Below, piece after piece: positions 1,378 to 60,232 of a stretch of DNA of 64,000 nucleotides (its first letter is position 1; every line of letters begins with the position of its first letter). The notes beneath the pieces are model-generated. The model saw only the letters and a list, made by a program, of their open reading frames with translations. It was not told the DNA's origin and made no database searches. Made by a program: the position numbers and the translations under genes. Source of the stretch: Takakia lepidozioides (Eukaryota > Plantae > Bryophyta); contig CM060732.1 of NCBI GenBank assembly GCA_030704615.1, positions 52,452,001 to 52,516,000 on the forward strand. The letters are read 5' to 3'.

Positions 1378-2982
1378 TGACAGATTGGTTAAAGAAATTG
1401 AGTTCGAAAGGTAGCACTCAATCTATAAGAGCACACACAGAGAGAGGAAGGGCAGGGCAAGGGGCAACCCAGATCAGAGAAGGTCTGTACAGTCTGTATA
1501 GCCCCGCCACGCGGCCACCCACCTCCTGCACAACACCTGTCTCCCTGCTCCTCTTCTTCTTATCCCTGTCTCGCACTTCTTTACAATTCTTCAACAAGCA
1601 ACTGCAATCAAAGCCCCCTAGAGATGACGACCATATTTCTAGTGCAGGACGCACAGGGGACCTGCTCCATTAGAATCAGAACACGTGTCATACACGTACA
1701 GGATGAAAAAGTTGGCGGGTCATAACTCTTCACAAATGGCGCTGCTCTCCTGAGAAGAGCTCTCAGGGAGAAAGCCACCCACATACAAGCCGAGCGCTTT
1801 TCCTTGTAGTGCTTGGGTGGGAAGCTCGAATCCATGCAGCAGAGAGCGGACCAGGCTGTGGAGGTGAATTGGGTATGCCTGGGCTCTGGGGAAACCCAGA
1901 TGGCCGGGACGACGCCCCGGCCACCAGAGATAACCAAGGAAGGTATATATATGTAAATTTGTAGTGCTTTTTGGGTTTTGGAGCGATGTAAGGTCCGTGT
2001 TGTCCTCGATCCTTCTAAGAGCTGCAAGCATTCACTTTTCAATGTCGAGGGTCAGTTGCCAGAGGTGTGAGACAATTTTCCGTGGTCCGTCTGGAACGTG
2101 CAGAGAGACATCCGCCACTGAGGGATGGGTAAAGGGCAGAGACAGAAGTACTCATGTATGGTTTCCAGGAAGGCTATGACGAATTGTGAGGGCTTTGTCT
2201 CTGCGGAATATCAAGCCTCGCCGAGGTTGTCGCGTATTGTATTGTGCATGGTACGGACTCAGACCCAAACGCTGTAATGCTCACGCTCTGAAAAGGACAG
2301 GGAATTATGCATGGATGTAAGGGCTGTTCTAGACAAATGCTAGAAAAGAGTAACGCTAGAAAAGAGTTCTGCATTGCTACTCACAGTTGTGACACATGTG
2401 GCTGATTACACTGCCAGCCACACAGCGCTTTGGGTAGAGAGAGAGAAGGGGGGATATAATGCTTACACTAACAATGATAATTGAGACTTATCTCAATTGG
2501 AACAAGTGGCTATTGGAAGCTGCAAGTTTTCTGATGAAGTTCTTGAAGTGCTGGCATACAGGTCAATCAATTAGCATGGAATGGGACCGGCAGGAGTTCT
2601 TCTCAGAGTTTTTTCACCTGTTCACAGAGGTGGGACAACAAATTTGAGAAGGTGAGGCTATCTAATGGCAGAAGGCTTTAAGATAGGATTATATTTGCCT
2701 GTTTCATAGATTAATTCAGTGCTCCTCCTGTGAAAAGCAGCAGAAAAGTATCTTGAGTTGGTGCCAGTAGGTTTTTCTTTCTTTTCATGAGGGCATGAAA
2801 GTGGGTTGCTCGGGTTGCTCAAGGTCGATCCCTATTATTGGGAAGGTGGCTGGAGATTCATTGCCAGCTCCATGCAAGGCTGTGGTTGAAGCTGTGGTTG
2901 GTCAGCTGGCCACAGGTAGCTTTCACAGAGAAGTCCACGATCCCCAAACTTCAGACATGAGCGCATAAAGGAGGCCCTGTGG

Positions 2983-5634
2983 ATGGAGAATTGCTTGAAC
3001 CCTTCTTGGGTGAAAGCAGAGCTAGCTGCCGTGATACCAGGTAGAGCACAATCTGGTGACAGTTCAGGTTATGGGGTACAGACAGAGTGGGGTCAAAAAT
3101 GCCCTCAGACCGAATTTGAGTATCACCCACAATCTGTCGCTCGTGATGGACTGACGCTGAGAGTCATTAAGAACTCTTCTGGCGATTGTGTGAGGACATT
3201 ATGCAAGGCAGGACGATTGAAAGAGGCACTGCAAATCTTGAACCAAAGAGGCTTTCTGGCAGACTCCAGCACTTATGTCTCTCTCTTGCAGGAGTGTGTC
3301 AACATGAAAGGCCTAGCAGAAGGAAAGCAGGTGCACACTCACATAATCCAGAGTGGATTCAAACCTAATATTTATCTGTTCAACAGCCTTGTTAACTTGT
3401 ATGCGAAGTGTGGGGCCGTGCTGGCTGCATGCCAAGTGTTCAACCAAATGCCAGAACGTGATATGTTTACATGGAATACAATGATAGCAGGATATGCCAA
3501 GCATGGGTATGGTAGGGAAGCTTTTGAGGTCTACAAGAAAATGATACAGAAAGGGGTGATGCCAAACACGGTGACGTTCACTTGTATTCTTAAGGCATGT
3601 GCCAACCTAGCAGCCCTAGAAAAGGGCATAGAGGTCCACACTTATATTATCAAAATTGGAATTGCACCAGATCTCATTCTCCAAAACACCCTCGTGGACA
3701 TGTATGCCAAATGCGGAAGCATACAGGATGCACGTCAAGTGTTTGACAATATGGCTAAACGAGATGTGGTGTCATGGAACTCCATGATCACAGGATATGC
3801 TCATCACGGGTGTGGTAGGGAGGCTTTCAATCTCTACGAGCAAATGATTCAAGAAAGGTTTTCACCCAACAGGGTCACGTTTATTTGTGTTCTTAAGGCG
3901 TGCGCCAGTCTGGCAGCCCTAGAAAAAGGTGAAGAGGTCCACGCTGACATCATCAAAGCTGGAATTGTGCCAGATATGATTCTGGAGAATACACTCGTGG
4001 ACATGTATGCCAAATGCGGGAGTATAAAGAATGCGGGACAAGTCTTTGACAAAATGGTTAAACGAGATGTCGTGTCCTGGAATGCCATGATCGCCGGATA
4101 TACTGAGCACGGGTATGGTAGGGAGGCTTTGAAGATGTATCATCAGATGCAACAGGAAGCATTGATGCCCAACGGGATCACATTCACTTGTGTTCTGAAG
4201 GCTTGTGCCAGCCTCACAGCCCTGGAAAAGGGCATAGAGGTCCATCAGGACATCATCAAAGCTGGAATTGCATCACATATCATTGTGGAGACTGCCCTTG
4301 TCGACATGTATGCCAAATGCAGAAGCATAAAGGATGCCCGTCAAGTATTTGACAATATGGCTCAACGCAATGTGGTCTCTTGGAGTGCCATGATTGCAGG
4401 ATATTCTGAGCATGGGGGTGATAAGGAAGCCTTTGACATTTATGAGAAAATGCTACGGGAAGGGGTGAAGCCAGACAGAGTGACATTCATCTGCGTTCTT
4501 AAGGCGTGTGCCAGCCTGGCAGCTCTGGAAAAGGGAATAGAGGTCCATGGCGACATCTTCAGAGCTGGAATTGTGCCAGATATCATTCTGGAGAATACCC
4601 TCGTTGATATGTATGCCAAATGTGGGAGCATAAAGGATGCCCGTCATGTATTTGACAATATGGTTCAGCGAAGTGTGGTGTCATGGAGCGCCATGATAGC
4701 AGGACTTGGTCAGCATGGGTGTGGAGTGGAGGCCCTCCAACTGTTTGAACAAATGCAACAGGAAGGCTTGAAGCCAAATGAGACCACCTTTATATGTGTT
4801 CTCTCTGCATGTAGCCATGTGGGCCTGGTAGGTGAAGGGCTTCACTACTTTGATTCCATGAGTCGAGATCATGGCCTCCACCCTAAAGGGGAGCATTTTG
4901 GTTGCATGGTGGACCTTCTTGGTCATGCAGGCCAATTAGAGGAGGCAGAGGACTTGATGAACAAAATGCCAATAGAACCTGATGGTGCAGTGTTGGCTGC
5001 CTTGCTTGGTGCCTGCAGAATTCATGGCAATGTGGAGGTAGCAGAGCGTGCGGCAAAATGCCTTCTGAAGCAGGATCCAGGGCATGCTGCAACTTATGTG
5101 CTGCTATCAAACATCTATGCTGCTGCTGGAAGGTGGGACGATACTGAAAAGGTGAGAAAAATGATGCAGGACAGAGGGGTCAGAAAGGAGGCAGGGCACA
5201 GCTGCTTTGAGGTGGACAACCAGGTGCATACATTTGTTGTAGAAGACAAATTGCATCCACATATTGAGGTTATACATGCTAAGCCGAAGAGTTTGTCAGG
5301 GCAGATGAAGGAGGCTGGGTATGTGCCTGACACTCGCTTTGTGTTGCATGATGTGGAGGAGGAGCAAAAGGAATTTTCTCTTTGCCACCACAGTGAGAAG
5401 CTGGCAATTGCTTTCGGTCTTATCAGCACGCCGCCTGGGACTCCTATCTGTGTCAACAAGAACCTTCGGGTGTGTGGTGACTGCCACACAGCCACCAAGT
5501 TCATCTCGAAGATTGTTGAACGAGCAGTAGATTGTGCGGGATGCCAATCACTTTCACCACTTTCAACATGGGGTTTGTTCTTGTGGGGATTATTGGTGAA
5601 CAAGAAATTTTGTGGAAAAAATGCTTGGCTTTAG
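2983..5634 (+). CDS. PLS-class pentatricopeptide repeat protein with E and DYW cytidine-deaminase domains (organellar C-to-U editing factor); 1-nt frameshift near 5530 removes the DYW tail
   Basis: Tandem P-L-S repeats (LVDMYAKCG / DVVSWNAMI / TFTCVLKAC), PG-box-like RKEAGHSCFEV, GYVPD, HSEKLAIAFG and CGDCH. The tail IVRDANHFHHFQHGVCSCGDYW* lies in another frame at 5531-5599. Confidence 0.95.
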   Translation: MENCLNPSWVKAELAAVIPGRAQSGDSSGYGVQTEWGQKCPQTEFEYHPQSVARDGLTLRVIKNSSGDCVRTLCKAGRLKEALQILNQRGFLADSSTYVSLLQECVNMKGLAEGKQVHTHIIQSGFKPNIYLFNSLVNLYAKCGAVLAACQVFNQMPERDMFTWNTMIAGYAKHGYGREAFEVYKKMIQKGVMPNTVTFTCILKACANLAALEKGIEVHTYIIKIGIAPDLILQNTLVDMYAKCGSIQDARQVFDNMAKRDVVSWNSMITGYAHHGCGREAFNLYEQMIQERFSPNRVTFICVLKACASLAALEKGEEVHADIIKAGIVPDMILENTLVDMYAKCGSIKNAGQVFDKMVKRDVVSWNAMIAGYTEHGYGREALKMYHQMQQEALMPNGITFTCVLKACASLTALEKGIEVHQDIIKAGIASHIIVETALVDMYAKCRSIKDARQVFDNMAQRNVVSWSAMIAGYSEHGGDKEAFDIYEKMLREGVKPDRVTFICVLKACASLAALEKGIEVHGDIFRAGIVPDIILENTLVDMYAKCGSIKDARHVFDNMVQRSVVSWSAMIAGLGQHGCGVEALQLFEQMQQEGLKPNETTFICVLSACSHVGLVGEGLHYFDSMSRDHGLHPKGEHFGCMVDLLGHAGQLEEAEDLMNKMPIEPDGAVLAALLGACRIHGNVEVAERAAKCLLKQDPGHAATYVLLSNIYAAAGRWDDTEKVRKMMQDRGVRKEAGHSCFEVDNQVHTFVVEDKLHPHIEVIHAKPKSLSGQMKEAGYVPDTRFVLHDVEEEQKEFSLCHHSEKLAIAFGLISTPPGTPICVNKNLRVCGDCHTATKFISKIVERAVDCAGCQSLSPLSTWGLFLWGLLVNKKFCGKNAWL

Positions 5635-8765: not shown

Positions 8766-9665
8766 TAGGGTAGCTTGTGCCATTGGCCCAAGTGTGCAGT
8801 GTCATATAAGTCCAAGTGCAATCCCATATGTATCCAAGTGCGTCTCATATGTCGAGGCCCATTTGTGAAGAAATGAAATCTAAGACCAAGTGCAATTTTC
8901 TCTATATCCAAGTGTGTCTCCTATGTCGAGGCCCATGTCGTGCGCATACATATCGCTACACAACTACATCGATGTCCAAACCACACCACGCATACCTTTA
9001 TCTCTCTCGAGTGATAAAAAAGAACTAAACTCAAATAACAAGAGAAACACAAAACACAACACCATCACTCTTTAAAATAATAGTCGAGCCAAGAGCACCC
9101 CAAGCTATGGGGACTCCACCCCACAACAACCTATCATCCCTTCATAAGCACATTCGGGTTCTGGACGGTGAAGGAGCTCGGTCGTGCTCAACTCGAGAGA
9201 GATGAGCCGCACGACTGACGCTCTCATGAAGATAAGACGGTTCAGGTGTCAAACTAAACTTGACACTTGACTTACCACTTGAACTAAATCCAAGTGTTAA
9301 ATACAAATAACTAGCTTTATTCTAGTTAATTTCACACTGTGTTTATTTAACTTTACACCCATTTAAGCCCCAATGCAATCTTCTATTCATGTATCCAAGT
9401 ACATCTCCCATGTAGAGCCAAGTGTCCAATGTCATCTAAGTCTAATCATTTTTTTTCAAAGAGCCTACAACCAGATTTGAACCGGAGACCTTTTCCTTGA
9501 TATCTCTCCTGTAGAGCCTCCAACCATTGTCCAGGAGAGCCCACTTTGCTATTTTTCCCAAATTTTCAGCGACCCAAAGTACTTGAAATTCCACATCTCC
9601 CACACCGCAAGTCCAAAAATCATGAGACCAAGTCAGTGCACCCCTCCTCATCGAGGGCTTTCCAG
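8766..9665 (+). repeat. Dispersed repeat, copy 2, interrupted by a solo retroelement terminal unit
   Basis: Same terminus and the same ACCAGATTTGAACCGGAGACC...GTCCAAAAATCATGAGACCAAG block as copy 1. Confidence 0.75.
8936..9357 (-). mobile_element. Solo terminal unit (B-A) of the DNMT/PHD Gypsy family
   Basis: Begins TGTCGTGCGCATACATATCGCTACACAACTACATCG, as at 54235, and ends ...TAACTTTACA, homologous to ...TAACTTGACA at 54745. TG...CA ends, flanked by the direct repeat CCCA (8932-8935 and 9358-9361). Confidence 0.85.
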
Positions 9666-20009: not shown

Positions 20010-20330
20010 TCTTATTGGATTCACTGTTAGAGAGGGAAAAAAATAAAATGCTACAAATTGCCGGTGTAGTGCTGAATTGTTTGTTGGTCCTGCCCTCAGG
20101 CAGAGACTACGTACTAGTGAACGCTCCCCCTAGGGCGCATTATGGCACCTAGTTCGTCCTAGGTCTCGGCCTCGCCCTAGTGACTCACTAGGAGCCATAA
20201 TGCGCCCTAGGGGGAGCGTTCACTAGTACGTAGTCTCTGCCTGAGGGCAGGACCAACAAACAATTCAGCACTACACCGGCAATTTGTAGCATTTTATTTT
20301 TTTCCCTCTCTAACAGTGAATCCAATAAGA
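20010..20330. repeat. Near-perfect long inverted repeat (144-bp arms, 33-nt loop)
   Basis: 20010-20153 is the reverse complement of 20187-20330, with one mismatch seen. Confidence 0.95.
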
Positions 20331-21949: not shown

Positions 21950-24900
21950 TGTCGTGCACCTAAGCATCGTGCCACAACATACATCGTTGTCCACCACACA
22001 ATCTAAGCACACAATCCTAGAAAGCTATACCACAATGATAAGAGATGAGAAATGAGAGAAGTAGAAAACAATGAAGGCTCTCAAAGCATGAAGCAATCAC
22101 ATGAAGAACAAGCCCTAGTCTTTCCAAGTGAAATCCACTCTATCACATAAACTAAGTCAAGCCAAGGGCACCTTTGCTAAAAGAATCCACCCTACAAAGC
22201 CCTCAACACACTCCCTCTCAATACCTAGAGCTATGGAGGTGAGAGAAGCTCATGGAGGCTCAACTACAAGAAGATGAGCCTCCTCAACACTCACAAGGGG
22301 AAAACCTATTTCCATGTCTCAAGTGAGGCTCGACACCTCACTTGGCATGTGAGACCAAATGAAGTCCCAACACACAAAATATAAATATAAATATCTAAAA
22401 TGTCATAGTTAACTAGAAGTAGGTAATTCTAGATAACCATGACTAAAACCATGACAGCTGTCGTGCACCTAAGCATCGTGCCACAACATACATCGTTGTC
22501 CACCACACAATCTAAGCACACAATCCTAGAAAGCTATACCACAATCGCCCCCCTAGCTGGTGGTTAGGTCCCTCTAACTCCAGATAGCTACAAGATGTAA
22601 TAGCCACAGCCGTACTAAGTCCTCTATCACTTATTGTACTCAAACTCTATAGACCAAGAGGCCGGGTACAAGAGCAACCCCATCATTAGTTGTCGTCTTG
22701 CAATCTGTGAACTTGAGTCAGGATCTCGTGTGTTGGTCTCCTAGTAACTTGGCCTTGCATTTCTTGTTAGCCTTCCATGGTTGTATCCACTCCCACTATC
22801 CAATGCAATGCGGACATAACCAATCCCCATCAGGAACCATCTCAAGAGGTGGAGTCAAGCATCCCATATGCCAACCTCTAGAGCATTGATCACACACCAG
22901 CATGGTGGCTGCCCCTCTAGCAGACCCACACAACATGCACCTCAAACTTGCAGATACCACTGCCAGGTTTGGGTCAATCCTGCCATCGACATTCGGAAGG
23001 TGACATGGCGCACAATTACGCACATGGTCCTTCCAAGTTATGTCATCCCGACCCTCCAAGATCAAGACGCCTGAGGGCAAAACCTCTCGAACCCTCAAAA
23101 TAACACGTCATGCAGTCACATCCAATGTCGTAGGAGCAGTCTGCTGCAGATAGACATAGTCACCAGGGTTGAATCTCCGAACCCCAGGACGATAGCCCCC
23201 ACCACGTATGGTAGCATACCTCAACGTATCACGATGGTGTGCAATGGCAAGGTTTCGAAAGCCATGGGCATGACTTTCTTGAACAACTATGCACGCTGCT
23301 CACATGCACGTGCCCACACATCTGGATCGTCAAGGTTAAGAACTGTAGCAGCTTCTCTGCGAATGGATGTAGGCAAATCCGACTCTCGGCCAAAGAGAAG
23401 AAAGTATGGTGAGAATGAGGCAAATGATGCTTGCTTGCTGAACCTGTAGCCCATGGCTAACCAGGGTAACTGAAGGTCCCAATCTCCTAGGTGTCCCTTC
23501 TGCAAGCCATACTTGAGCAAACCCCTCTTTATTATCTGAACAACTCTCTCTGCCAAGCCATCGGCCTCAGGATGATCCCGAGAAGTGGTGCGGTGGTCTA
23601 TCAAGGCCTTGTCACACAAAGCCTGAAGCTCCCCCAAGAACTCTCTCCCTTTGTCCGTGAGTACCTCAGCTGGAGCACCGAATCGGCTAAGCACACAATC
23701 CAAGAATGCATACGCAGCTCCCTCACTAGCCTTATCAGGCAATGGAACCAATTCAATCCACTTGGAGAAGTGCTCCACCATCACCAACACGTACTTGTTG
23801 TGGCGCATGGTCAGTGGTAACGGCCCTGCGAAGTCAAGACTCCACTTGTAGCCCAATCCCATGATCGGAAGAGGGTGCAATTGTGGAGTAGGGGCGTTGA
23901 ATGAAGCACGCACCCTGTCACACACCATGCACCTAGCCACAAATTGTTGCACCTCTGTGTGCATACCACGCCGCCAATACTGCCCCTGCAGTAGACTATG
24001 AGTGCGTCGCACCCCAAAATGCCCTAACTCCTTATGGGTATGCCGCACTAACCGTGCCCGCTGTGTTGGGTGAGGCACAATCCTCACTCGACCATCCTCC
24101 CACACTCGGAGCAGGTGTGTCCCCTCCCACTTGAACCTCTTGGCTCGTTGTAGGATCCGATCCCTCTCCTTGGCAGTCACAGTGGCTGCAGTGTCTCCAA
24201 TGCGGAGGTAGTCCAACACAACTGAATCCTCGTGTATATCTTTGGCGCCACCTTGCTCATTGCTGACCTCAGGGTCCTCAGACACTTGATCTACAGTCAT
24301 CCCTGTTGCAAGTCCAACCTGGCCTTCCGCTGCCAAGATACATAAAAATGCAGATGCATGCCATCCGGGCACCATCTCCTCGTCCGTCTCACCATGCCAC
24401 CGAGCTCCAGTGTCATCCTGCTGGCTCGTGCATGGATTGCGACTCAACCCATCTGCATTGCGATTGACCAAACCTGATCGATGCACCACCTGAAAGTCAT
24501 ACTCTTGAAAGATGAGTGCCCACCGTGCAAGCTTCCTCGTAATCTTGTCTGACTTCATCAACCACTTGAGTGGTTGGTGATCCGTGACAAGGGTGAAGAG
24601 ATTGTCGTATAGATAGTACCTGAAGTGTGCCACGGCCCACACTGCAGCTAAGCATTCTCCCTCATATGAGCTATACTTAGACTCTACAATGTTGTTCGAG
24701 CGGCTAGCATAAGCCACTACGAACTCTCTTCCCTCATCATCCACCTGTGTGAGCACCGCTCCAAGCCCCAGCATGCTCCAATCTGTATGCAGCTGAAAAG
24801 GACGCCCCCTGATAGGTCGTCTCAAGATGGGCGCCGAGGTCAACCTCGCCTTGAGCTCTTGAAAAGCTTGTTCTTGCTCATCTTCCCACTGCCACTCCTG

Positions 24901-25490
24901 GTCCACCTTGGTCAGCTTGGTTAGAGCCTTTGCAATGGCACTAAATCCCTTAACAAACCATCTATAATAGTTTGCTAACCCCATGAAAGCTCGAACTCGG
25001 CTCACATCCGTGGGGCGTGGAACCTGTGCAATGGACTCTACCTTAGTCTGCTGTACCCCCAATCCTCCAGGATATATCATGTGACCCAGATACTCAATCT
25101 GGTTGTGGAAAAACTTGCACTTTCCTGGATGTAACTTCAATCCGTGCGCCCTCAAGCGCTCAAATACCCCCTGAAGATGTCTCTCATGCTCCTCCACCGT
25201 AGCACTAAAGATGATGATGTCATCTATGTAGCACCGAGCAAACTCCACCCCTGCTAGAATCCTGTCCATGACTCTTTGAAACTCAGCAGGAGCGTTTTTA
25301 AGCCCAAATGGTAAGAACCGCCACTGGTATAGGCAATCCTTCCCGTGCTCATTGATCCCCCAGAATGTCGTCTTTTGCTTATCCGCCTCCTTGATCGGCA
25401 ACTAGTGATATCTGGATCGTAAATCCAACGTGCTAAAGACCTTGGCATGCCCAATGGCATCAAAGATCTCCTCTGGTGTTGACATGGCAT
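21950..25490 (-). mobile_element. Gypsy-type element copy 1 (5'-truncated): partial RT, RNase H, integrase, PHD finger, PPT and A-B-A terminus
   Basis: ORF 23287..25401 has PFGLKNAP, YIDD, LHTDWS, TDHQPL, the HHCC zinc finger and the DDE core. PHD is in ORF 22796..23098. PPT at 22544-22553. Identical 85-bp repeats at 21950-22034 and 22459-22543. Confidence 0.95.
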
Positions 25491-26059
25491 TTTAGTCCGG
25501 GGGTCGTAAGCCGCGACGCCCTGGCGTCGCGGAGACCGCCACCTTGCCTGCGCCACGTCTTTTTTTAATATTAAATATAAAACAAAAGCGACGCCGGAGT
25601 GTCGCAACAACCCACACCCAGGCATGGCGGAGACCGACTCCTGCTCCTGCTGTTTTTTTGCCACGCCCAATAGTCGCTTGGCGTACCACCCGGCTTACAC
25701 CACGTGTTTTTGGGTTTTAGGATGGGACTCCCGGGCAGGTTAGAAAAAAAAAGGGGATGCGACGCCACGCCGGCGCCCCCACCAACGCCGTCGGCTGGAG
25801 GGCCACGACGGCGAGACGTCGCTCGAAGAGGCCCCTGCCATCGGCGCGGACGGCCTGAAAAATCGATGGCGGGCAGTCGTGGGAGTTGGGGCGGGGGCTC
25901 GCGACCCCTATACGTCGCATTTTTGCGATGTCATTTTGGCGACGCCCATACGACTGCCGGGCATCTCAAATTCTGCGCCTGCCACGTGCCCGAAAATGGT
26001 GTTTTCCCGACGTTGCGGCGTGGCGCGGGCGTCGCAAATGCCCCCATTTTCCTGTAGTG
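25491..26059. mobile_element. One-ended CACTA (En/Spm) DNA transposon fragment
   Basis: Ends TTTTCCTGTAGTG, the reverse complement of CACTACAGGAAAA. Many GCGACGCC/GGCGTCGC subterminal repeats in both orientations; GC-rich; no second TIR. Confidence 0.8.
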
Positions 26060-29000
26060 GATGCTGAGTAGAGCTGCTATTGCAGGCTTGGGCCTTACGA
26101 AGGCAGATATGGAGCCTTGTCCTTTCCAGATACAGACGTCTTTGGGAGGATCGGAGTAGGCTCGGGGCATGACATGGCGTGAGTTGGCTATCAGACTACG
26201 GCTGGATCACCCTACAGATGACTCAGTGATGCGAGCCAAGGCCATTGTGACAGACGCGGTCTTGTACGATGTCTTGGTTGGTGGGGCAGAGTTGTACCCC
26301 ATGGGCTTCACCCTAGATTTTTGGGAGGAGTCAGCTTCCTATAGGCCTGGATAGCAGTCAGGGGAGGGCCGGTGTGTGCAGCTCCCTCTGACGGTCATAG
26401 GAGGAGTTGTGGTTGCCCAGCGAGGCAAGATGTCGACACTAACAACATTCACAGCTGCAGTGAGTTGGCCTGGAGAGTTGCTTGAGAGCAATGCTCATTC
26501 AGAGGATGTGTCACCTCCGGGAGAGCAGGATGACATGTATGGTATGGCGGAGTTGCCTGCCATGGTTGCTCAAACTCCATTGTGGGGCACGAGCAAGGAT
26601 TTGCAGCGGGTTGCTGATCGATGGGTGCAACAAGCCTGGGTGGAGACTTTTGTACCATCAAGAGAGGAGGAGAGTGCGGAGATTGCACCAGGACCACCTC
26701 AGTTGTCTCCATTGGACACCACACCTATTGTGTGGCAGTATCCGGATGAAGGCATTTGTCTTCTGGACTTGTTTGGCGGGATCAGCACCGGATTGGCTGC
26801 TGTGTTACAGACAGGTGTACGAGTTCGGCGTTACCTATATGTGGAGAAGGATGAGACTGCACGACGCGTTTCACTTTGTCATGTTGCTTAGTTGGTTCTG
26901 CAGTTCGTGGATACCAGCAGGCCTTGCCAACAGACATGTCGTTGCTGGGGGCGCAGGATTTGGAGCGGGTTGGCTCCATTGATCTGGTAGTGGCAGGTTG
27001 GCTCTGGCAAGGGCATTCATCAGCCGGGCATGGCAATGGATTGCGAGACTCGAGGTCGGGTCTGTTTTGGAGTTTTGCGCCACTTCCAGCTTCATCAAGC
27101 TGTATCTCCAACATACATCTTGGAGAATGTGCCACTGATGGGCGATTCTTGGGCCAGATGGCCAGTGTGCATTAAGTCCGGTCGTGGCTTGGGTCAGTAG
27201 TGTTGCTGGATGTAGCTGTAGTGGGGTCACGGGCTCATCGTCCACGGCTATGGTGGACTAACTTGATGCCACCCGCACTACTCAAGCGTGCATTTGATAG
27301 GGTGCGGCCAGCACACCTCACAGTGGATAGCATTTTGGACACATGGAGGCAGTCTCAGCGTGTGAGACACAATGACCGTTTGCCTTTGGTAGTGGTCAAC
27401 AGGGTAGGTCAACCACGAGCAACATTACCTACACTGCTCAGCTTCCCAGGATCGCATGCTTTCCGGGATAGTGGACCTGGCCTCCTGTGGGATGCTCAGT
27501 TGCAGCAGTTAGTGGAGCCTAATGCTGACGAGCGGGAGTGGGCAATGGGTTTTACCACTGGTACCATGACGGTGTCGTCTCTTTCTGAGGCATCACGTCG
27601 TCAGGTGTTGGGGCAAGCAATGGATCTCAATTGCTTGACCTGGATTATCAGCTTGGCTATGGCTGAGCAACGCAGAGTGCGGAGTACACTTCCCTTGCTG
27701 GTCTCTCTTCCTACCGAGATGGTACAGGCAGTGAGTGGGGGCGAGCATGTGAGGACCACGGGGTGCAGGCATCCATGGCACACGTGGGAGGTGCTCGAGG
27801 TTCAGAGGGAGTTGGCAGCCAAGGTGGCGGTGATGGATGAGGTTGGGGATTTTTCTCGGGTTGAGGAAGTCCTCGAGGATGAGATGATGGGGCAGGATGA
27901 GGCCTTGTCATTGACTGAGTAGGTAGGGAGTACTGCTCAAGAGGTTGCAACATAGCAACCACTGGACGCGTCCTCTATCTGTAAGCCCACTAGACTTAAG
28001 GTTACAGTTACTGAGGACAATTAGGAGCCTGACATTGGACCCATTGTCATCGGAGGAGAGAGACGATGTATACGGCGGTTCCTGAGGGCTTACAGGAATT
28101 GCTTTGCCTTCAGTTTGAAGGACTTGGGAGCACTGAAGGGTCAAGAGATCCGTATTGAGTTGGCCACTGACACGCCAATCTTTCGGAGACCCTATAGATA
28201 CAGTGACATGGAGAGGTCTTTGATTCAGATGAGGACTCAAGATCTCTGGGAGGCAGGTTTGGTGGAGCTCTCTGGTGGAAAGTATGCTTCAGCCACAGTG
28301 ATGCCAGCCAAGAAGGATGTCTATGGCAATTGGACGGAGAGACGTATGTGCGGTGATTACCGGCCTGTAAATCGTCAGACCAAGTCCGATAAGTATGCCA
28401 TGCCAACAGCAGAGGAGATCTTTGATGCCATCGGGCATGCGAAGGTCTTTAGCACTTTGGATTTAAGATCCGGATATCACCAGTTGCCGATCAAGGAGGC
28501 GGACAAGCAGAAGACGACATTCTGGGGGATCAATTAGCACGGCAAGGATTGCCTATATTAGTGGCGGTTTTACCATTTGGGCTTAAGAACGATCATGTAG
28601 AGTTTCAGAGAGTCATGGATAGGATTCTAGCAGGGGTGGACTTTGCTTGGTGCTACATAGATGACATCATCATCTTTAGTGCTACGGTGGAGGAGCATGA
28701 GAGACACCTTCAGGTGGTATTGGAGCGCTTGAGAATGCACGGATTGAAGTTGCATCCGGGGAAGTGCAAGTTTTTCCACAACCAGATTGAGTATCTGGGT
28801 CACATGATATATCCTGGAGGATTGGGGGTACAGCAGACTAAGGTAGAGGCCATTGCACGTATTCCACGCCCCACGGATGTGTGCCAAGTTCGAGCTTTCA
28901 TAGGGTTGGCAAACTATTATAGACGGTTTGTCAAGGGATTTAGTGCCATTGCAAAGGCTCTAACCAAGCTGACCAAGGTGGACCAGGAGTGGCAGAGGGA

Positions 29001-31732
29001 AGATGAGCAGGAACGAGCTTTTCAAGAGTTCAAGGCGAGGTTGACTTCGGCGCCTATCCTGAGACGAATTATCAGGGGGCGTCCCTTTCAGCTGCATACA
29101 GATTAGAGCATGCTGGGGCTTGGAGCGGTGCTCACACAGGTGGATGATGAGGGAAGAGAGTTCGTAGTGGCTTATGCTAGCCACTCGAACAACGCTGCAG
29201 AGACTAAGTATAGCTCATATGAGGGAGAGCGCTTAGCTGCAGTGTGGGCCGTGGCACACTTCAGGTGCTATCTATACGACAATCTTTTCACCTTGTCACG
29301 GATCACCAGCCACTCAAGTGGTTGATGGAGTCAGACAAGCTTATGGGGAAGCTTGCACGGTGGGCACTCATACTCCAGGAGTATGACTTTCAGGTTGTGC
29401 ATCGACTGGGTTTGGTCAATCGGGATGCGGATGGATTGAATCGCAATGCATGCACGAGCCAGCAGGATGACACTGGAGCTCGGTGGCATGGTGAGACGGA
29501 CAAGGAGATGGTGCCGGGATGGCATGCATCTACCTTTTTGTGTATCTTGGCATCGGGAGGTCAGGTTGGACCTACAACAATGATGACTGTAGACGGAGTG
29601 TCTGAGGACCTTGAGGCTAGTGATAAGCCAGGTGGTACCAGAGATATACATGAGGATTCGGCTATGTTGGACTACCTCCGTACTGGAGACACGGCAGCCA
29701 CTGTGACTGCCAAGGAGAGGGATCGGATCCTACAATGAGCCAAGAGGTTCAAGTGGGAGGGGATACACCTGCTTCGAGTGTGGGAGGATGGTCGGGTGAG
29801 GATCGTGTCTCACCCAACACAGCGTGCACGGTTAGTGCGGCATGCCCATGAGGAGTTGGGGCATTTTGGAATGCGATGCACTCACAATTTACTGCAGGGG
29901 CAGTATTGGTGGCGTGGTATGCATACAGAGGTGCAACAGTTCGTGGCTAGGTGCATGGTGTGTGACAGGGTGCATGCTTCATTCAATGCCCCTACACCAC
30001 AGTTGCATCTTTTATCAATCAGGGGGTTGGGCTACAGGTTGAGTCTTGACTTTGCAAGACCGTTGCCACTGACTATGCGCCACTACAGTTATGTGTTGGT
30101 GATGGTGGAACACTTCTCCAAGTGGATTGAGTTGGTTCCATTGCCTGACAAGGCTAGTGAGGGGGCTGCGTATGCATTCTTGGATCGTGTGCTTAGCCGA
30201 TTCGGTGCTCCAGCTGAGGTACTCAGAGACCAAGGGAGAGAGTTCTTGGGGGAGTTTCAGACTTTGTGTGATAAAGCCTTGATAGATCACCGCACCATTT
30301 CTCGGGATCATCCTGAGGCCGATGGCTTGGCAGAGAGAGTTGTTCAGACGGTGAAGAGGGGTTTGCGCAAGTATGGCTTGCAGAAGGGACACCTAGGAGA
30401 TTGAGATCTTCAGGTACCTTGGTTAGCCATGGGCTACCGGTTCAGCAAGCAAGCATCACTTGCCTCCTTCTCACCATATTTTCTTCTCTTTGGCCGAGAG
30501 CCGGATTTGCCTGCAGCCATTCGTAGGGACACTGCTCAAGTCCTTAACCTTGATGATCCGGACGTGTGGGTACGTGCATGTGATCAGCATGCAGAGTTGT
30601 TCAAGAAAGTCATGCCCATGGCTTTTGAGAACCTTGCCATTGCACAGCACCGTGATACGTTGAGGTATGTCACTATACGTAGTGGAGAATATCGTTCTGG
30701 GGTTTGGAGGTTTAGCCCTGGTGACTATGTTTATTTGCAGCAGACTGCTCCTACAACCCTGGATGTCACTGCAGGGCGTGTTATTCTGAGGGTTCGAGAG
30801 GTGTTGCCCTCAGGAGTCCTGATCCTGGAGGGTCGGGATGGCATGACTTGGAAAGACCATGTGCGTAATTGTGTGCCATGTCACCTTCCCAATGTCGATG
30901 GTAGAGTTGACCCAAGCTTGGCAGTGGTACCTGCAGGTTTGAGGTGTATGCTCTGTGGGTCTGCCAAAGGAGCAGCCACCATGCTAGTGTGTGATCGATG
31001 CTCAAGAGGTTGGCATATGGGATGCTTGACACCACCTCTTGAGAGGGTTCCTGATGGAGATTGGTTATGTCCACACTGCTTGGGATAGTGGCAGTGGACA
31101 TGACTAGAGGCAGCTAACAAGACATGGGAGGCCAAGCTCATAGGAGTCAATACACGAAATCCCAGGCTCAAGTTCACAGGTTGCAAGACGACGACTAATG
31201 ATGGGGCAACTCTTGCACCCGGCCTCTTGATCTATCGAGTTTGAGTGTAGTAGAGACAGTGGTGGAGGACTTAGTGAGGCTATGGTCACTATCACATCTT
31301 GTGGCTACCGCTGGACTTAGAGGGACCTAAGCACTAGCTAGGGGGGCGATTGTGTGGACTAGTGACTGCCATAGTGGGCAGCATAGTGGCAGCCTAGTGA
31401 CTGACTAGTTGTAGCCTAGTGGTTGGACTAGTGGCTGGATTAGTGGTGGACTAGTGATATACTAGTCTGTGGTGTGCACATGTGCTGTGTGGTTTTGGAC
31501 AACGATGTAGTTGTGTAGCGATACGTATACCATACATATTGACATTTGGGATTGGCCCAAGTGTCAATCCAGGGGGTCAAGGCAGATTTAGGCCCTGGAG
31601 TGGTTATCTTCACGGCAAGCGCGGGAGGCTCATCTTTCTCGAGTTGAGCCTCACCGCGCCTGGCTATGGCACCGTAATGTGGATTCCCCATGGCGTGGGG
31701 TACACTTGGCTTGACTTGTATTTGAGTGATGA
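26060..31732 (+). mobile_element. Gypsy-type element copy 2: protease C-terminal half, C5 DNA methyltransferase, RT, RNase H, integrase, PHD, PPT, truncated A-B terminus (decayed)
   Basis: YDVLVG (protease-like), DNMT motifs at 26751-27630, RMCGDYRPVN/LDLRSGYHQ/YIDD, RNase H and integrase, PHD at 30945-31079, PPT GGGGGGCGAT at 31341-31350, repeat A from 31351. Multiple stops and frameshifts. Confidence 0.95.
26751..27630 (+). pseudogene. DNMT3-like cytosine-5 methyltransferase domain within pol (degenerate)
   Basis: Motif I LLDLFGGI, motif II YVEKD, motif IV IDLVVAGW[LW]QGHS, motif VI YILENVP (27114-27134, different frame), motif VIII SRAHRPRLWWTN, motif IX EREWAMGF, motif X RRQVLGQAMD. Confidence 0.9.
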
Positions 31733-32770: not shown

Positions 32771-35700
32771 ATGACTTTTAAACGTCGAATCATTATGGAT
32801 AACATCAGCAGATCTCAAGAATTTCCTGCAAACCAACCTACCCAATACCAATTCACAAATTCTGTTCAAGGGGAAAATTCAGCAGTTCTTCCTCAAGCAA
32901 CAAAAACATTATTCAATTTCACCCCTCACCAAAATCTCATGGGGGGCATACATGGAAGACTATCCTGGACTTAGTGTCAAACCTTCAACCCACATTCTAG
33001 CTCTCATGGAGGATGCAGAAATTTATGCCTCGCCTCCACCGACAGAGGCTATCTGGATTTCTGAGGACCTGCTCTCAGCCCCCAGAGGGAGTCACAGTTT
33101 GCAAATTCGAAACCAGGATACCCTGATAAATGGGTTTCAGTTGCTGGGAGCCCACTTGGACTCTGAAGTGGATGGGGAAAATTACAGAATAGATCGGTTC
33201 AAAGGACAAGAGATCATATTAATGGCACCAGACGGACAGATCACTCTCACTCTTCCTCAGACTCCCAGGTGGAATCTTCAACGCAAGAGGAGAATCACAA
33301 CATGATGGACTCGGTGAAAGGAGCTAAACAAGTATCCTCCCCAACAATCATTGACACAACCCAGGCTAACTCGATGCCGAACTCTCAAGTGACTTCTCCA
33401 CCCAAGGTCTTAACTCCCTCCTCCCCACCTTCCCCAAACAAGGTACCATCCTCTCTCTCACCCTGTTTCATTTATCAGGTCTTATCTGGGAACCCTGCTA
33501 GATGCTGGATGTTATGCAAGAAAGAGAAATATGTGGGGGGGAAGCAGGTCAGACATAGGCTACCAGTGTTTGATTTGCCAGAAAACATGCCCTCTGGAAC
33601 TCTTCCCTCCGATGGCTCAATCAGTGAGAGATACCCGGGTTTTAACGATCTTTTCAACGCGATGTTCTTCCCGACTGAAGCCTCGGTTTTATCTGTAACC
33701 ATCTCCACAGTGTCTACAGAACAATTCCTTTCATCCCATGACCTACCCAAAAACACAAAACCAAGAGGGGTTTTCATACTCATCCAAAACAAAACTCGCA
33801 AGCCCCCGGACAATTATGTCTGGAAAAATGCCCTGCGACCAAGAGACAGTAGGGTTAAATTTTTCCATCACACTTCTAGGCTATCAAATGAGACTGTCAG
33901 CCTCAGCCTACCTCGACCTGCCAATGATCTTTAACCTCCATTCATGGAACATAAGAGGGTTGGGAGCAAACCCAGCTTCTCTAAAAGGCTGAAAATCAAA
34001 ACCTGGCTGACTCCCTTCCTTGCAAATCATTCCATCATATTCCTGCAGGAGCATAAACTAGATCAAGGGAAAATAGATAGCCTCACTGATTATCTATGGC
34101 CATTAGCTAACTCCTTATGGAAACCCACCTCCACGGGTACGAAAGGAGGTACTGCAATACTTCTTTCACCTACCATTCAACCGTTCCTCACAACGCAGGA
34201 CACCTGGCTCCCCGGAAGATTGCAATTTTGTGCCTTATCCCTACCCAATTCAACAGGTCCGATTGGGTTGGTGAATATCTATGCACCCAATGATTCTACT
34301 GACAGAGCAGAATTTTGGAACACTCTCAACACAAAAATGAGGGAACAACCTTCAATAGATAGTTGGATATTGTCTGGAGATTTTAATATGGTGGAGATGC
34401 AAGAGGATAGAAGAGGCGCGGGGTTATTTACCTCAAACCCAGATGAAATGGACCAGTGGTTCAACTGCATGCAAACACACAACCTCACAGAAGCAGTACC
34501 AATCTTTGGACAATCATCAAACATCACCTTTACCTGGTCCAATAACCGTTTTCTAGCAGATCTAAGTATGGCTCATCTTGATAGAGCTTACCTTTCCCTT
34601 CACTTAGTTCAATATGCTAAGAGAGCCCCTCAAGAACCAATACCCTTATGATTTGACCATGCACCAATTTACCCTCTCTATAACCCTACCAGACTCTTAC
34701 AGAAGGGGTAGAGGCCTTTACAAAATAAATAACCTCATCCTTAAGCTGCCAAGCTTCAAGCAAGGCCTGCTAAGGGCTTGGACTCAGGCGGGAAGTGACC
34801 TCCTGGACCCTACGCATCTCTTCCTGGCCAAGCTGAAGGCTGTCAATAATTGAAAGTCAGAGGATGAGTCAGGAACTAGCAAGCATCAGGAAGAGGAAGG
34901 TCATAGCCTTAAACAAATGCCTCAAAGTTTGTCAATCGAAAATAGAATCCACTCGCTGTGATGAAGACACATACCGTACATATGTCCAGGCTAGAAACAA
35001 CCTGGACATTCATCACAAGACCCAAGAGAGGAAATGGAAGCGTGTGTCAACGGGTCCACAAAAGGAGAAAAAATGAATAAATATTTTTTCGACAAAACAA
35101 GATTGAGACGTGCCTCTCAAAAAATTTCTGAGCTCATTGAACAGCCATCAGGCACTTCAACTTCTACACCAAAGGCCATGGCCATGCTGGTTGGCAAGCA
35201 CTTCCATAATCTTTTTCATAGTGACCTCAACTCCCTGCAACCAACAGAAGAACAAACATCCTGTTTGATACACACCCCTACCCTGTTGTCCCAACAATTC
35301 GCCTCCCAATTAGAAGGAGAGTTCACAGATATAGAGCTGGGTGAAGCATTATTGAAACTACAGAACAACAAATCCCCAGGCATAGACGGTTTATCGGTAG
35401 AATTTTACAAAGCATTGTGGCCGGAAATCTCCAGGGATTTCACTACAATGGCAAACCACGTGTTTCAACGGGGACACATGCCCACAATTATGACACAATG
35501 AGTTATAACCTTACTCTATAAAAAGGGTGATAGAACAAACATATCGAATTATCGGCCCATAACCCTCCTCAATGTAGCTTACAAGATAGTGGCGAAGGCA
35601 CTAGCCCTTAGATTGCAGCCTCTGCTTCCAACTATAATTAGGCCAAATCAAACAGGGTTTATCAAGGGTAGATACATATTGGATAACCTCCTTCTAGCCC

Positions 35701-38690
35701 AGGAAATTCCAGACTTCGCGGCTAGAACAGACCAAGCTATTGCCCTCCTCCTTTTAGACTTTGAGAAGGCTTTCGATCGTGTTGAATGGTCATACCTGCT
35801 GGCAGCCCTGGCCAAATTGGGTTTTCCCCAATCCTTTTGCAAATGGGTCAGGATATTACTCACCGATGCATCTAGCAGAGTCTCAATCAATGGCCATTTA
35901 TCAGCTTCGTTCCCTCTGCAACGCTCAGTGAGGCAAGGGTGCCCCCTCTCACCTTTCATATTTCTGGTGGTAGCAGATACACTTGGCTATATGCTACAGC
36001 AAAATCAGTTTATAAAGGGCCTCAGGGTCACTAACTACATTACTAGGCAGTACAATTTCTTGGTGGACTCTATGTTCGTTGATGATACCTTTTTAATGTT
36101 GCAAGCCACCCCGGAAAACTTGGACCAGGCAGGGTTTACCTTGAACAAGTTTTGTGCAACATCTGGATTCAAAGTAAACTGGAATAAGACTTCAGGTTTA
36201 CTGGTAGGGGACCTCTCAAAATCCACAATGGGATCCCCGCCCTCATGGGGAATGGATCAAGGGCTAAGGTGGCTCAAACTTGGGGAGACCACAACACTAC
36301 TAGGCTACACATATGGAATTGGTCTGACAGACCAGCAGATTTTTGCTGCCACAATGACCAACTTGAAGAGGAAACTGACTTACTGGGGTTCAAAACATCT
36401 CTCAATTACGGGAAGAGCCCTTGTTGCTAATCAGATTCATTCAGCTGGATTATGGTATTATGCTTCTTCCTGGCGCCCAAGCTCTAAATAGATTCAGGAC
36501 ATCAAGCGCCTGCTTAGGAACTTTGTTTGGGGAGCGAAGACCTCATCCTAAAACAAACGACTGCTTGTAGTCTGGGCCCAAATCTGTTTACCCAAAAAAA
36601 AGGGGGGGTTAGGGATACTCGATCCAGAAACACAGATTGTAGCTCTTCTTGGCAAATGGATACCCAGGTTTCTAGGGCCAGAGGGGGGATGGTGGAAATT
36701 CTTGGTCTATGACCACATTACAAAGTCCTCCCCTCTCAAGACTACCCGATGGAGCCCCTCCCTTTGTTGGCTCACTCAAGGATTTAATCTGAAGACAGTG
36801 GGGTCTGCTCTATGGTCTAACATCTGGTCAGCCTGGGGGCGGCTAAGGAAACTGCTTGTAAAAGCCCAGCCAAGTATCTTCTATGAAGTTAAGAGACAAC
36901 ACTTGTTTCTAAATGACACTCCTCTGACCCCTTCTCAGAAAAACCAGGCAAAAAGGTGGTCCAAACGGGACTGCCTTAGCATTAGACAAATTCATAACAT
37001 ATGGTCAGGGATTGGTTTCATATTTCTACAATCTATGGCTCAGGCTGTAGGCCTCGCAAGGGCCACAAAAGGCCTCCAACAACTTGTTCAATCTGTACCA
37101 GTGCAGTGGTTGGCCACCCTTTCCGCAGGCCCTCCGGAACCAATCCCAAAATCCTGGGCACTCATCATACTTCACAACCAGCTTACCATTGTTTTTGTAG
37201 ATGACATATCCATAAATGACATAGCTGTTTTCACATTCGCCATCAACACCACCTCCCTAAGACTCACACTTACCTCTACAGAACCTTTGACAATCCAAAC
37301 TATGCCTCTCACCCCTATCTGGGTCTACTGCTGGACAGCCATAGATAAGGGTATGAATCCCCAGCCACCCCTCACTATCACCACTAGAGCTTGGCTAACA
37401 ACCAACTCCTTTGTATGGATTTTGGGTAGGCCACAGGTAGAATTGGATATTGACCCCTTCGAATGGTTATGGAAATTCAACACCACCCCATAACCCTTCT
37501 TTGCATACACAACCAAAAAGGGTTACAAAGCCCTGTTAGTCACCCAACCCATGAACAAGAAATGGGAATCAAAATGGGGGCTCTACAACTTCCGCGATGA
37601 GAATTGGAAAATCATTTGGGGCTCAGTGTGGATCAAAACCCGGCCATCAAAGATTGCAGCTTTCCTTTGGCAGGTTGTTAATAGAGTTCTCAAAGTGGGG
37701 GAATGCCTACAGTTCCAGGGAGCCCTCTTGTGTGCTTGCTGTTCCACTGCAGTATTGGAATCCATTGAACATTGCCTTCTCTCATGTCAAGCATCAGCCA
37801 AAATCTGGCCTTATGTTAAGTCATTCTATAGATATTGGGACAGAAGACAGCTCACGGATACATACCTCTTTCTTAACTATGACCCAGCTTCCTATAATAG
37901 AACCCTAAATTGCCCAGTGTTTGAAACCCTCAGAGCCTCTACGATGTGGCACTTATGGAAACTACGTTGTAAGAACACTTTCCAAGGCCACACAACAACA
38001 ACATCCTCTCTCCTTGCCATTGTATTTTGGGACTTACAAACTGAGGCTAGGAAAGCATGGGGCAAACTCTATGCAGACATTGAACGTGACGCCACGAATG
38101 TAGCTGCGCTCCACAGGAAGTTTCAACAAACCTGGGGCAGACAGGGCCTCATATGCAGCAACCCTGTGCAAGACCAATGCAACTGGAACGAGCTCCCCCC
38201 TCAAGCTTGGCGAGATCTTCGTGCACCACTCCACTCTTTCCCCGGAGTTTGAACGAGACATTAACTGGAAACATCAAAAACCTTCATCGACTGCTTCTAA
38301 GCTGCACTATAGATAGATCTCTCTCTCAGCCCCCCCTTATTCAAAGATCTTCTTACTCTCTCCCGACATCGCTCTCCCTGCGTCATCGTAGACAGGGTAG
38401 GGTATGTGTTGTTAAGATTTAGGTCTCGGGCAGAGAGCCCTGTTTTTTGGTCTCTTGGACTTTCCTCCAACCGGAGGTGTTTGGCTCCTGGATCTAGGAT
38501 CTTTGTGTAAGTGTCCATTAGTAGTGGCACGGTATTTTGTTCTCTAGACTTAATCTCCATCAGGAGATGATTGGCTCTTAATACACTGAATACGGTGTGT
38601 GTGCCTTATGGCGACAACGGGGGTTTTAATTATTTTCCCCTCAATAATTATCAATAAAGTAACCAGGGATTCAATAAAAAAATAAAAAAT
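32771..38690 (+). mobile_element. Near full-length decayed L1-clade LINE (ORF1 remnant; ORF2 with APE endonuclease, RT and zf-RVT)
   Basis: SWNIRGL, FLQEHK, NIYAPN, GDFN, LDRAY; KSPGIDG, YRPITLLN, QTGFIKGR, LDFEKAFDRV, RQGCPLSP, FVDD; CACC..ESIEHCLLSC. ORF2 ends at 38252 and an A-rich tail lies at about 38673-38689. Boundaries are approximate. Confidence 0.93.
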
Positions 38691-44645: not shown

Positions 44646-46232
44646 CTACTCAATTTTATACACCTCTGGTATCTCCACTGGGAATTCATCAATGCAGTGA
44701 GCCCAGGCTGACTGCTTTGAAGGCTTGATTGTGCGGAGTGCTTGCCACACAGCACTATTGCACTTGAACCCACTTCCAAAAGCAATTTGCCAGACTCTGT
44801 CACCTTCGCGCATCCGTCCTTTAGCTTCCGTATATGCCAACTCGTACCAAATTGACGACGAGGAAGTATTGCCAAACCTGTACAGAGTCATGCGAGAAGG
44901 TTCGCAATGCTCTGTGGTCAGCTGCAAGTTCTTCTGCAGTTCGTCAATGACTGCTCGTCCTCCAGCATGAATGCAAAAATGGTCAAATGCAAGCTTGAAA
45001 TCGGGAATGTAAGGCTTAATCTTCATGTTTAACACTTTCCTGGCAAAAAGGAATGCGAAAAACAAAATTTGTTCTGAAAGAGGAAGGACAAGAGGCCCGA
45101 GTGTTGTAATGTTTGTCTTCAAGGCATCCCCAGCAATGGCCATGAGATCCTTGGACAGGACAACTCCCATCACTCCTTTCTCATCTTGCTCCTGGTAGAC
45201 ACAATGGTAGCACTTGTCATCTGCACCTTTATGTGTCCTCACGACATGGTTGAGCTTGTACTTGGATCGTCGCTTGTCCTTACCCATGTTGGACAGAAGA
45301 ATGGCTGCCCCACCAACTCGGAACAGGCAATTGGGGATGAGCATCGAGCGGCGATTCCCGAAGTACCAGTTCTGAGTAATGTTCTCAGTGCTCACTACAA
45401 TTGCATACGTCCCCCCATGAACTTGTAACATATCCTTGGCGAGGTCAACCGAGATGACTCCAGCACTGCATCCCATCCCCCCCAAGTTGTAGGTTCGAAT
45501 GTTTCCCCGCATTTGGAACTTATTCACAATCATGGCCGACAGAGACGGGGTGGGATTGAACAGACTACAATTGACTACAAGCACCCCAATATCCTTGGGC
45601 TTCACCCCTGTTTTCTGGAACAACTCATCCAAGCATCCAAACATGACAGCTTCCGACTCCTCTCGCGCTGCGCTCATGTTGGGACTCGGTGGAATGGTGT
45701 GCATTGCAGGAGGAAAACACGTGTTCTGTCCCAAGCCCGACCGCTCCAAGATCTTCTGCTGAAATTCGGTACTCCTCTCATCAAAGAGCCCTGAAATTCG
45801 GGTCCTCTCTATGAAAAGCTCGTGGGTGACCTTAAGGGCCTCCTGCGGCAAGTAGCAAGCAAAATCCACCAGGTAAACTGGCCTGGGCCTTGACATAACA
45901 TACAATGTGACACCGAACACCAGCAGTGCTGAACATGTCATCACACTGACAAGGTTGAACTGCAGGTTGTCCCACAGCTGCCTCATATCCTCAGGCCCCA
46001 TCCTTTTAACCTCTAGAACAATCGTCATGACCAGCGGGATGAAGAGCAGTGTCAAGAGATGCTTAATCAGATAATGATAGCCCAGTTTCACATACTTCAA
46101 GTTCACTGACTGCAAAAAGTCTGGCAACCGCCGCCGCGCGTTAATCTGCACAGACACCCTCTCCCCCTTGATGCTACTCCTTGCATCAAGGGGAGAACAA
46201 CCCATGGCTCCCCCTTGCCCACCCTTTGCCAT
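44646..46232 (-). CDS. KCS: 3-ketoacyl-CoA synthase (FAE1/KCS very-long-chain fatty acid elongase condensing enzyme)
   Basis: 528-aa intact ORF with [30 protein letters not shown] (catalytic Cys), [21 protein letters not shown] and [13 protein letters not shown]. Confidence 0.97.
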
Positions 46233-60218: not shown

Positions 60219-60220
60219 CT

Positions 60221-60232
60221 TGGTATCAGAGC
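60221..60232 (+). other. Primer-binding site complementary to initiator tRNA-Met
   Basis: TGGTATCAGAGC, 2 nt after the LTR end. Confidence 0.92.

Follow-up and report, generated by a model that had tools for sequence, protein, structure and literature searches.

The window analysed here, a stretch of 64,000 nt from the bryophyte Takakia lepidozioides (GenBank assembly GCA_030704615.1, contig CM060732.1, positions 52,452,001 to 52,516,000 of the forward strand), contains three copies of Ty3/Gypsy retrotransposons, numbered 1 to 3 in Table 1, of which copies 2 and 3 carry a DNMT3-like C5-cytosine methyltransferase ahead of the reverse transcriptase (RT). All three copies are dead. An earlier note on this DNA, made from the sequence alone, had placed copy 2 at 26060–31088; this start stands, but the end falls short, as the element reaches about 31732, and the Pfam check proposed in the note matched RT, RNase H, integrase and a PHD finger behind the methyltransferase. 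Copy 2 lacks gag and the active site of the protease because it is cut at 26059 by the terminus of a GC-rich insertion, which we take to be CACTA-like, and loose contig ends at 26060 indicate that other copies continue upstream. The remaining protease-like segment gave no Pfam match when searched alone and owes its name to homology with relatives, the protease regions of some of which match Asp_protease_2. At the other end of copy 2, the junction between the terminal repeats A and B is deleted and the second A is absent. Copy 1 is cut inside the RT and therefore has no methyltransferase. The family is large in this species, because 26,042 contig pieces from one public run map to 2.7 kb of copy 2, a figure that denotes many copies and is not a copy number.

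The methyltransferase motifs of copy 2 lie, as the earlier note had read them, between the protease-like segment and the RT in the order I (LLDLFGGI, 26760), II, IV (GWLWQ), VI (ENV), VIII (RAHRPRLWWTN), IX and X, and are distributed among three reading frames. Relative to copy 3, copy 2 is missing 28, 11, 4 and 3 nt at about 26897, 27070, 27157 and 27304, and its fragment matches PF00145 with an E-value of 0.019; the domain of copy 3, with its stops read as X, matches the same model at 1.2e-13 (51.6 bits, cut-off 22). Copy 3 had been described as catalytically intact and as holding the domain at the same position. GWPCQ is indeed kept (59279–59265), but two TGA stops follow shortly after, at 59255 and 59231, and motif I and everything upstream fall outside the window because the long terminal repeat (LTR) of an unrelated Gypsy element starts at 59471; the position is thus seen only on the RT side.

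Table 1. Features of the retrotransposon copies and other features in the 64,000-nt window (PPT, polypurine tract; ORF, open reading frame).
Feature	Position	Strand	Remarks
Copy 1, related subfamily (~89%)	21950–25490	−	3′ end PPT-A-GC-B-A, palindrome at 22453–22462
GC-rich insertion truncating copy 2	25491–26059	n/a	Terminus at 26059, presumably CACTA-like
Copy 2	26060 to ~31732	+	Protease half, C5-methyltransferase, RT, RNase H, integrase, PHD, in order
Copy 2, C-terminal retropepsin part	26061–26351	+	Likeness to protease region of relatives
Copy 2, DNMT3-like C5-methyltransferase, motifs I–X	26760–27685	+	Frameshifted, catalytic PC changed to LW
Copy 2, TAG CAA CCA, predicted leaky stop	27953–27961	+	In frame, ORF1/pol boundary
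Copy 2, RT and RNase H, broken	28043–29390	+	Pfam RVT_1, RT_RNaseH
Copy 2, integrase	29739–31088	+	Integrase_H2C2 6e-15, rve 4e-12
Copy 2, PHD finger, C-terminal on integrase	~30945–31080	+	PHD 3e-11
Copy 2, 3′ end	31340–31732	+	PPT, repeat A (from 31351), repeat B remnant
Copy 3, same family	54235–59470	−	~92–95% identical to copy 2 (~92% overall)
Copy 3, DNMT3-like domain, motif II to X	58572–59468	−	Single frame, GWPCQ kept, two TGA stops
Copy 3, TAG CAA CCA	58306–58314	−	In RT frame, same as copy 2
Copy 3, 3′ end	54235–54930	−	PPT, A1 (54920–54748), GC, B (54745–54413), AT, A2 (54410–54235)
Copy 3, palindrome GACAGCTGTC	54742–54751	−	A|B junction
Unrelated Gypsy nested in copy 3 methyltransferase	59471–64000	+	LTR 59471–60218, TGGTATCAGAGC primer site, gag-pol
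Pentatricopeptide repeat (PPR) gene	2920–5634	+	E, E+ and DYW domains
Inverted repeat	20010–20330		149-nt arms, 23-nt loop
Decayed long interspersed nuclear element (LINE)	33935–38252	+	Endonuclease and RT
3-ketoacyl-CoA synthase	44646–46232	−	Intronless

Judged from sequence and predicted fold, the domain is DNMT3-like and non-permuted, as the earlier note had proposed. The best matches of the copy 3 domain among solved structures were DNMT3A (E 2.9e-9), DNMT3B (6e-6), HhaI (6e-4) and DRM2 (0.024), and a profile of 21 sequences widened the gap (3.6e-21 for DNMT3 versus 3.6e-5 for DRM2). A predicted model (predicted local distance difference test, pLDDT, 78) retrieved DNMT3 entries in all the Foldseek rows listed among the top 50 ranks. 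We rejected identity with DRM, as the domain is not circularly permuted and the match to DRM2 is far weaker than that to DNMT3A.

Relatives of the domain extend far beyond the two window copies, with 513 clusters at 50% identity scoring an E-value of 1e-10 or better. Named relatives among the matches listed come from Calypogeia (74%), Marchantia (up to 72%), Sphagnum, Closterium and six chlorophytes, and none of those listed was from a named vascular plant, hornwort, Chara or Klebsormidium, a weak negative. The main group of metagenome loci is 58–72% identical to Sphagnum and liverwort proteins, and Marchantia contains open Gag-protease-DNMT3 frames with an intact PCQ; Mp4g09160 and Mp8g17980 are examples of Marchantia loci whose domain is intact by nature. 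A scan of viral contigs returned only weak phage-type methyltransferases (30 loci), and an Atlas search only general C5-methylase clusters. The domain occupies two slots: before the RT in streptophyte-named proteins, and between RNase H and integrase in chlorophyte-named ones (P0069, P0122, P0439, P0431, P0461 and P0163; Hariotina, Scenedesmus, Monoraphidium, Haematococcus, Chlamydomonas eustigma and Cymbomonas). The chlorophyte type accounts for 135 of the 234 full-length domains among the retrieved proteins, a set that includes cluster members and is partly redundant, and comes out as a single clade in the RT tree (support 99) as well as in the DNMT tree (100). Both are quick trees with distant outgroups and an uncertain root, the DNMT tree being built with five phage-type methyltransferases as outgroup and containing no host DNMT3, DRM or Klebsormidium sequences. 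Some chlorophyte-type proteins (P0429, P0190, P0430, P0443) have a G-patch (PF01585) or a chromodomain (PF00385) besides the PHD finger. Methyltransferase-bearing Gypsy elements are a known kind, published for Klebsormidium, which is here extended to mosses, liverworts and chlorophytes. As in the earlier note, which knew of no account from a land plant, no land-plant description of a Gypsy-borne DNMT3 was found in the literature searched, whose coverage did not include most subscription papers, Repbase or figures, so that a prior mention is possible; the chlorophyte arrangement likewise had no description in the literature covered.

The catalytic residues are conserved throughout this range. 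The catalytic Cys is present in 228/234 and the Glu of motif VI in 232/234 full-length domains, and the Arg of motif VIII and the Gly of motif I are nearly invariant across architectures, which argues for catalysis. The Pro of motif IV is replaced by Glu in 100 of the 234 domains (GWECQ-type) with the Cys retained, and land-plant-type domains keep PC in 47 of 49 cases. Between lineages, the ratio of nonsynonymous to synonymous substitution rates (dN/dS) of the domain was 0.08–0.23 where computable, several pairs being saturated, and the cleanest pairs gave 0.14 (dS 0.26) and 0.12 (dS 1.4); such values, none near the 1 that the earlier note had associated with a spurious domain, indicate that the domain is under purifying selection between lineages. 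Dead sibling copies had a dN/dS of 0.66–0.82, as expected from decay after insertion. Frameshifts distort the values obtained for methyltransferase and RNase H when copy 2 is compared with copy 3, and we did not take them as a sign of relaxed selection.

The domain is a fixed part of the family, as had been claimed from copies 2 and 3, but it does not share one open frame with the RT, because a TAG conserved across the family (27953 in copy 2) stands between them. TAG CAA CCA is found 30 codons upstream of the RT in both window copies. We surveyed 82 sequences (80 metagenome loci plus these two), 61 of which retain the end of the methyltransferase and the start of the RT and collapse to 54 distinct loci at 98% identity. 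In 48 of the 54, a TAG or TAA with CAR directly after it stands 24–31 codons before the RT (other stops in four, none in two), these 48 being related loci rather than independent events. Among 557 decay stops inside domains, by comparison, CAR comes next in only 30. The signal spans lineages that are only 49% identical in the methyltransferase. It matches CARYYA exactly in seven loci, and most others have CAA CCC. In sequencing runs of this species (555 and 149 contig pieces over 27900–27999), positions 27953–27961 had no variant at ≥3%, and neighbouring bases varied at 5–67%. The search for intact copies suggested in the earlier note yielded a metagenome locus with an apparently intact body (L030, 976–8227 of its contig), consisting of 1369 codons, TAG CAG TTA and 1047 codons, so that it too bears one TAG; single-ORF relatives do occur elsewhere in the group. 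Additionally, 49 of the 234 proteins end soon after the domain and have no RT. UAG-CAR-YYA is the readthrough signal of tobamoviruses, in which UAA works too (PMC3542737, PMC5382211). We infer that ORF1 probably encodes Gag-protease-DNMT3 and that pol would be its readthrough product, in which case the enzyme would be made in Gag amounts.

The ends of these elements are also unusual. Copies 1 and 3 end in PPT, A, GC, B, AT, A. The whole relatives L036, L037, L062 and L066 (= L067) have the order B-coding-A-GC-B-A, and others B-coding-A; altogether, A-B-A ends were found in seven distinct loci plus the two window copies and a single A in about eight. Inserts start with TGTC and finish with GACA. 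Target duplications were read in relatives, the window copies being without 5′ ends: among eight loci with both ends, the 4-bp duplication was exact in five and matched at three of four bases in three (three ends were set by hand), and 56 mismatched end pairs gave no full match and nine at three bases. A and B meet in the palindrome GACAGCTGTC (window 22453 and 54742). The bases between B and the second A are the same two that separate the PPT from the first A, namely GT in the majority of relatives and AT in the window copies, and in L062 and L070 the B|A joins show filler or a deletion. A tRNA-type primer site was absent from all 13 loci inspected, in which the bases following the 5′ B can base-pair with part of B (over 16 nt in three loci and 6–13 nt in the others). 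This pairing resembles Tf1-type self-priming. In L002, L036 and L051 the paired stretch (position ~165 of the 5′ B) lies about 25 nt downstream of a TATAAA. At window 8934–8993, a short stretch that matches the end of repeat A is perhaps a remnant of another insertion. The simplest reading of these ends is that the true LTR would be A+GC+B, with the ends of the complementary DNA (cDNA) joined and the integrase cutting the palindrome inside the LTR.

Taken together, we consider it somewhat probable (roughly 0.55) that these are decayed Ty3/Gypsy copies whose ORF1 ends in a DNMT3-like enzyme and a conserved stop, and that active members read through this stop at a low rate, package the enzyme in amounts like those of Gag and use it to methylate their own newly made cDNA. 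Gag-protease-DNMT3 would be the major product and form the particle, with a minority of UAG readthrough supplying RT and integrase; the protease would free the methyltransferase inside the particle, where the enzyme would modify the reverse transcript. Self-primed reverse transcription would give an ordinary cDNA with A+GC+B at both ends, the two ends would be joined, and the integrase would cut the internal palindrome (GACA^GCTGTC) and insert those ends, leaving permuted LTRs. The PHD finger on the integrase may direct insertion to nucleosomes whose H3 tail is unmodified: that of copy 2 is nearest to the CHD4, KDM5 and PHF21A types, whose fingers bind unmodified H3 tails. Marking of new cDNA by an element-borne DNMT has been proposed for algal elements (PMC5890265), and the benefit to the element may be passing as host DNA, protection, or pre-silencing. 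The earlier suggestion that the element could shape the host methylome finds no support here, where all three copies are dead. As a wider scenario, we only tentatively propose a green-plant-wide Gypsy lineage that captured a DNMT3 once, before the chlorophyte/streptophyte split, and later moved it between the two slots, with the leaky stop, Gag-level enzyme, pre-methylated cDNA and integration through a cut in the LTR-internal palindrome of end-joined cDNA marking its bryophyte branch.

Several observations weigh against self-methylation by a packaged enzyme, and part of them would also be expected if the domain was kept for binding DNA or chromatin, for particle structure, or for action on RNA or host target DNA, with the element's own cDNA left unmethylated. 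The Klebsormidium domain produced no methylation in yeast, a result that its authors called inconclusive (PMC5890265). The methyltransferase changes at about three times the rate of RNase H and integrase (0.12 versus 0.04), a weaker constraint, and the Pro of motif IV is often lost, as described above. The observed/expected CpG ratio of the element (0.5–0.6) indicates no stronger depletion than in host genes here (0.38–0.52) and hence no sequence trace of self-methylation; this depletion and the transitions between copies 2 and 3 (CG 9.2%, CHG 6.3%, CHH 2.7%) fit ordinary host methylation. Nevertheless, a non-catalytic role sits poorly with the near-invariant Cys, Glu, Arg and Gly and with the PC kept in land-plant-type domains, and we regard this family of explanations as rather doubtful. 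Also to be set against the proposed scheme are that CAA CCC, the form of most relatives, is one base off the CARYYA consensus, that in the CAA CCC subfamily an ATG lies three codons past the stop, making reinitiation possible there, and that the 5′ B is preceded by A in no locus, so that a single permutation is seen although a circle has two A|B junctions.

These last points leave room for pol to be expressed from an internal promoter or through splicing or reinitiation, and for the split repeats to be copied in the fashion of DIRS from an internal A|B junction, giving a linear cDNA with B and A ends and involving neither end-joining nor an internal cut. DIRS-fashion copying would explain why B-coding-A-B-A is the sole permutation observed, and some Marchantia and Sphagnum gene models fuse DNMT and RT in one protein. 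These fusions, however, are unverified predictions, and neither L030, whose first downstream Met is at residue 117, inside the RT, nor copy 2 has a Met before the RT. The PPT directly before the first A is as in ordinary LTR replication, and so is the pairing, for as many as 16 nt, of the transcript-start region with what follows the 5′ B; the filler or deletions at the joins of B with the second A in L062 and L070 also speak against DIRS-fashion copying; we consider these alternatives unlikely. That a fragment of a host DNMT3 was captured by chance and rides as a neutral passenger in a local family might seem to agree with the death of all three window copies and the high dN/dS of dead siblings, but it is refuted by the distribution of the domain over 513 clusters and over liverworts, mosses, Closterium and chlorophytes, and by a dN/dS of at most 0.14 in unsaturated between-lineage pairs; the agreement of the DNMT and RT trees on the chlorophyte-type clade likewise speaks against it.

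The open Marchantia frames with PCQ bring the question of why a transposon would carry the enzyme that silences transposons within experimental reach in a genetic model plant. If the stop is leaky, the enzyme is expected in large amounts in the particle. The permuted ends suggest a way of integrating unlike the textbook LTR cycle and, if this holds, the element would be a natural retroelement whose normal insertion proceeds through an intermediate of the 2-LTR-circle type. Such elements would be easily missed by tools that seek paired LTRs. Several PF00145-bearing Marchantia gene models are in fact such elements, a point to consider when plant DNA methyltransferases are counted.

Elsewhere in the window, the PPR gene is of the organellar RNA-editing factor type. 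The 3-ketoacyl-CoA synthase is 79–80% identical to those of named mosses and 77–78% to those of liverworts, and in a 36-row tree falls inside the moss clade (100/99) and outside the sampled Sphagnum and Bryopsida subclades; this single gene makes an early-branching moss the likely host. The near-perfect inverted repeat (arms 98% complementary) could be a miniature inverted-repeat transposable element (MITE) or encode a hairpin RNA.

The element resembles Ty3/Gypsy retrotransposons in its protease-RT-RNase H-integrase order, its DDE (rve) integrase and, as read in relatives, its TG...CA ends with 4-bp target duplications, and differs from them in lacking two complete identical LTRs, the order being B-coding-A-B-A or B-coding-A. 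Identity with DIRS/PAT elements was rejected, given the rve and H2C2 domains, the target duplications and the absence of a recombinase match in the element ORFs scanned. Troyka, a Gypsy group with split repeats, does not fit either (CG...CG ends, 3-bp duplication, metazoan hosts). Chromoviruses carry a chromodomain on the integrase (PMC12440569), in the place of which there is a PHD finger here.

The methyltransferase shares with the DNMT3 family motifs I–X in non-permuted order with the Cys, ENV and motif VIII Arg, and is closer to it than to other C5-methyltransferases by sequence and fold. The nearest described element is KnitGypsy-Dnmt3 from Klebsormidium nitens (de Mendoza et al. 2018, PMC5890265), compared here through its published description and not through Klebsormidium sequence. 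Both have the Gypsy domain set, a non-permuted DNMT3-like domain under purifying selection and DIRS-like split repeats, with one repeat flanking the coding region and then B-A-B. However, the algal element has its DNMT in one ORF with RT and RNase H, whereas here the DNMT ends ORF1 before a conserved stop, and its host is an alga rather than a land plant; because that paper puts the DNMT in the RT ORF, we do not place the present element as a member of KnitGypsy-Dnmt3. The word PHD is absent from its main text, and the parts covered give no termini, target duplication or integration model; later papers from the same group cite only 'streptophytes'. SymbioDIRS-Dnmt3 from Symbiodinium is likewise a retrotransposon-borne DNMT3 with split repeats, but it has a tyrosine recombinase instead of a DDE integrase and 4-bp duplications; two dinoflagellate domains methylated CG in yeast, where SymbioDIRS-Dnmt3 domains do so de novo (PMC5890265). 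EpiLTRs and DAM-LTRs (bioRxiv 10.64898/2026.05.21.726589) are also Gypsy elements with a DNA methyltransferase and a chromatin reader, but theirs is DNMT4-like with DAM and a chromodomain, and their authors set them apart from streptophyte Gypsy-DNMT3.

In the literature searched, with the limits given above, no paper described CARYYA in retrotransposons, nor did any describe this element among split repeats in Gypsy or circle-junction integration. The arrangement shares with Type I readthrough of tobamoviruses an in-frame UAG or UAA with CAR-YY upstream of a polymerase (PMC3542737, PMC5382211), but here it stands between a Gag-protease-DNMT3 frame and a retrotransposon RT, and many copies have CAA CCC. 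The integrase of foamy virus cleaves the palindromic junction of 2-LTR circles (PMC1180852), a likeness to the proposed cut giving processed ends; there, however, the palindrome is the LTR-LTR join and the proviral LTRs are normal, whereas the palindrome of the present element sits within the LTR and its insert comes out permuted. New in this finding, and open to testing, are the predicted leaky stop and the permuted ends joined at a palindrome.

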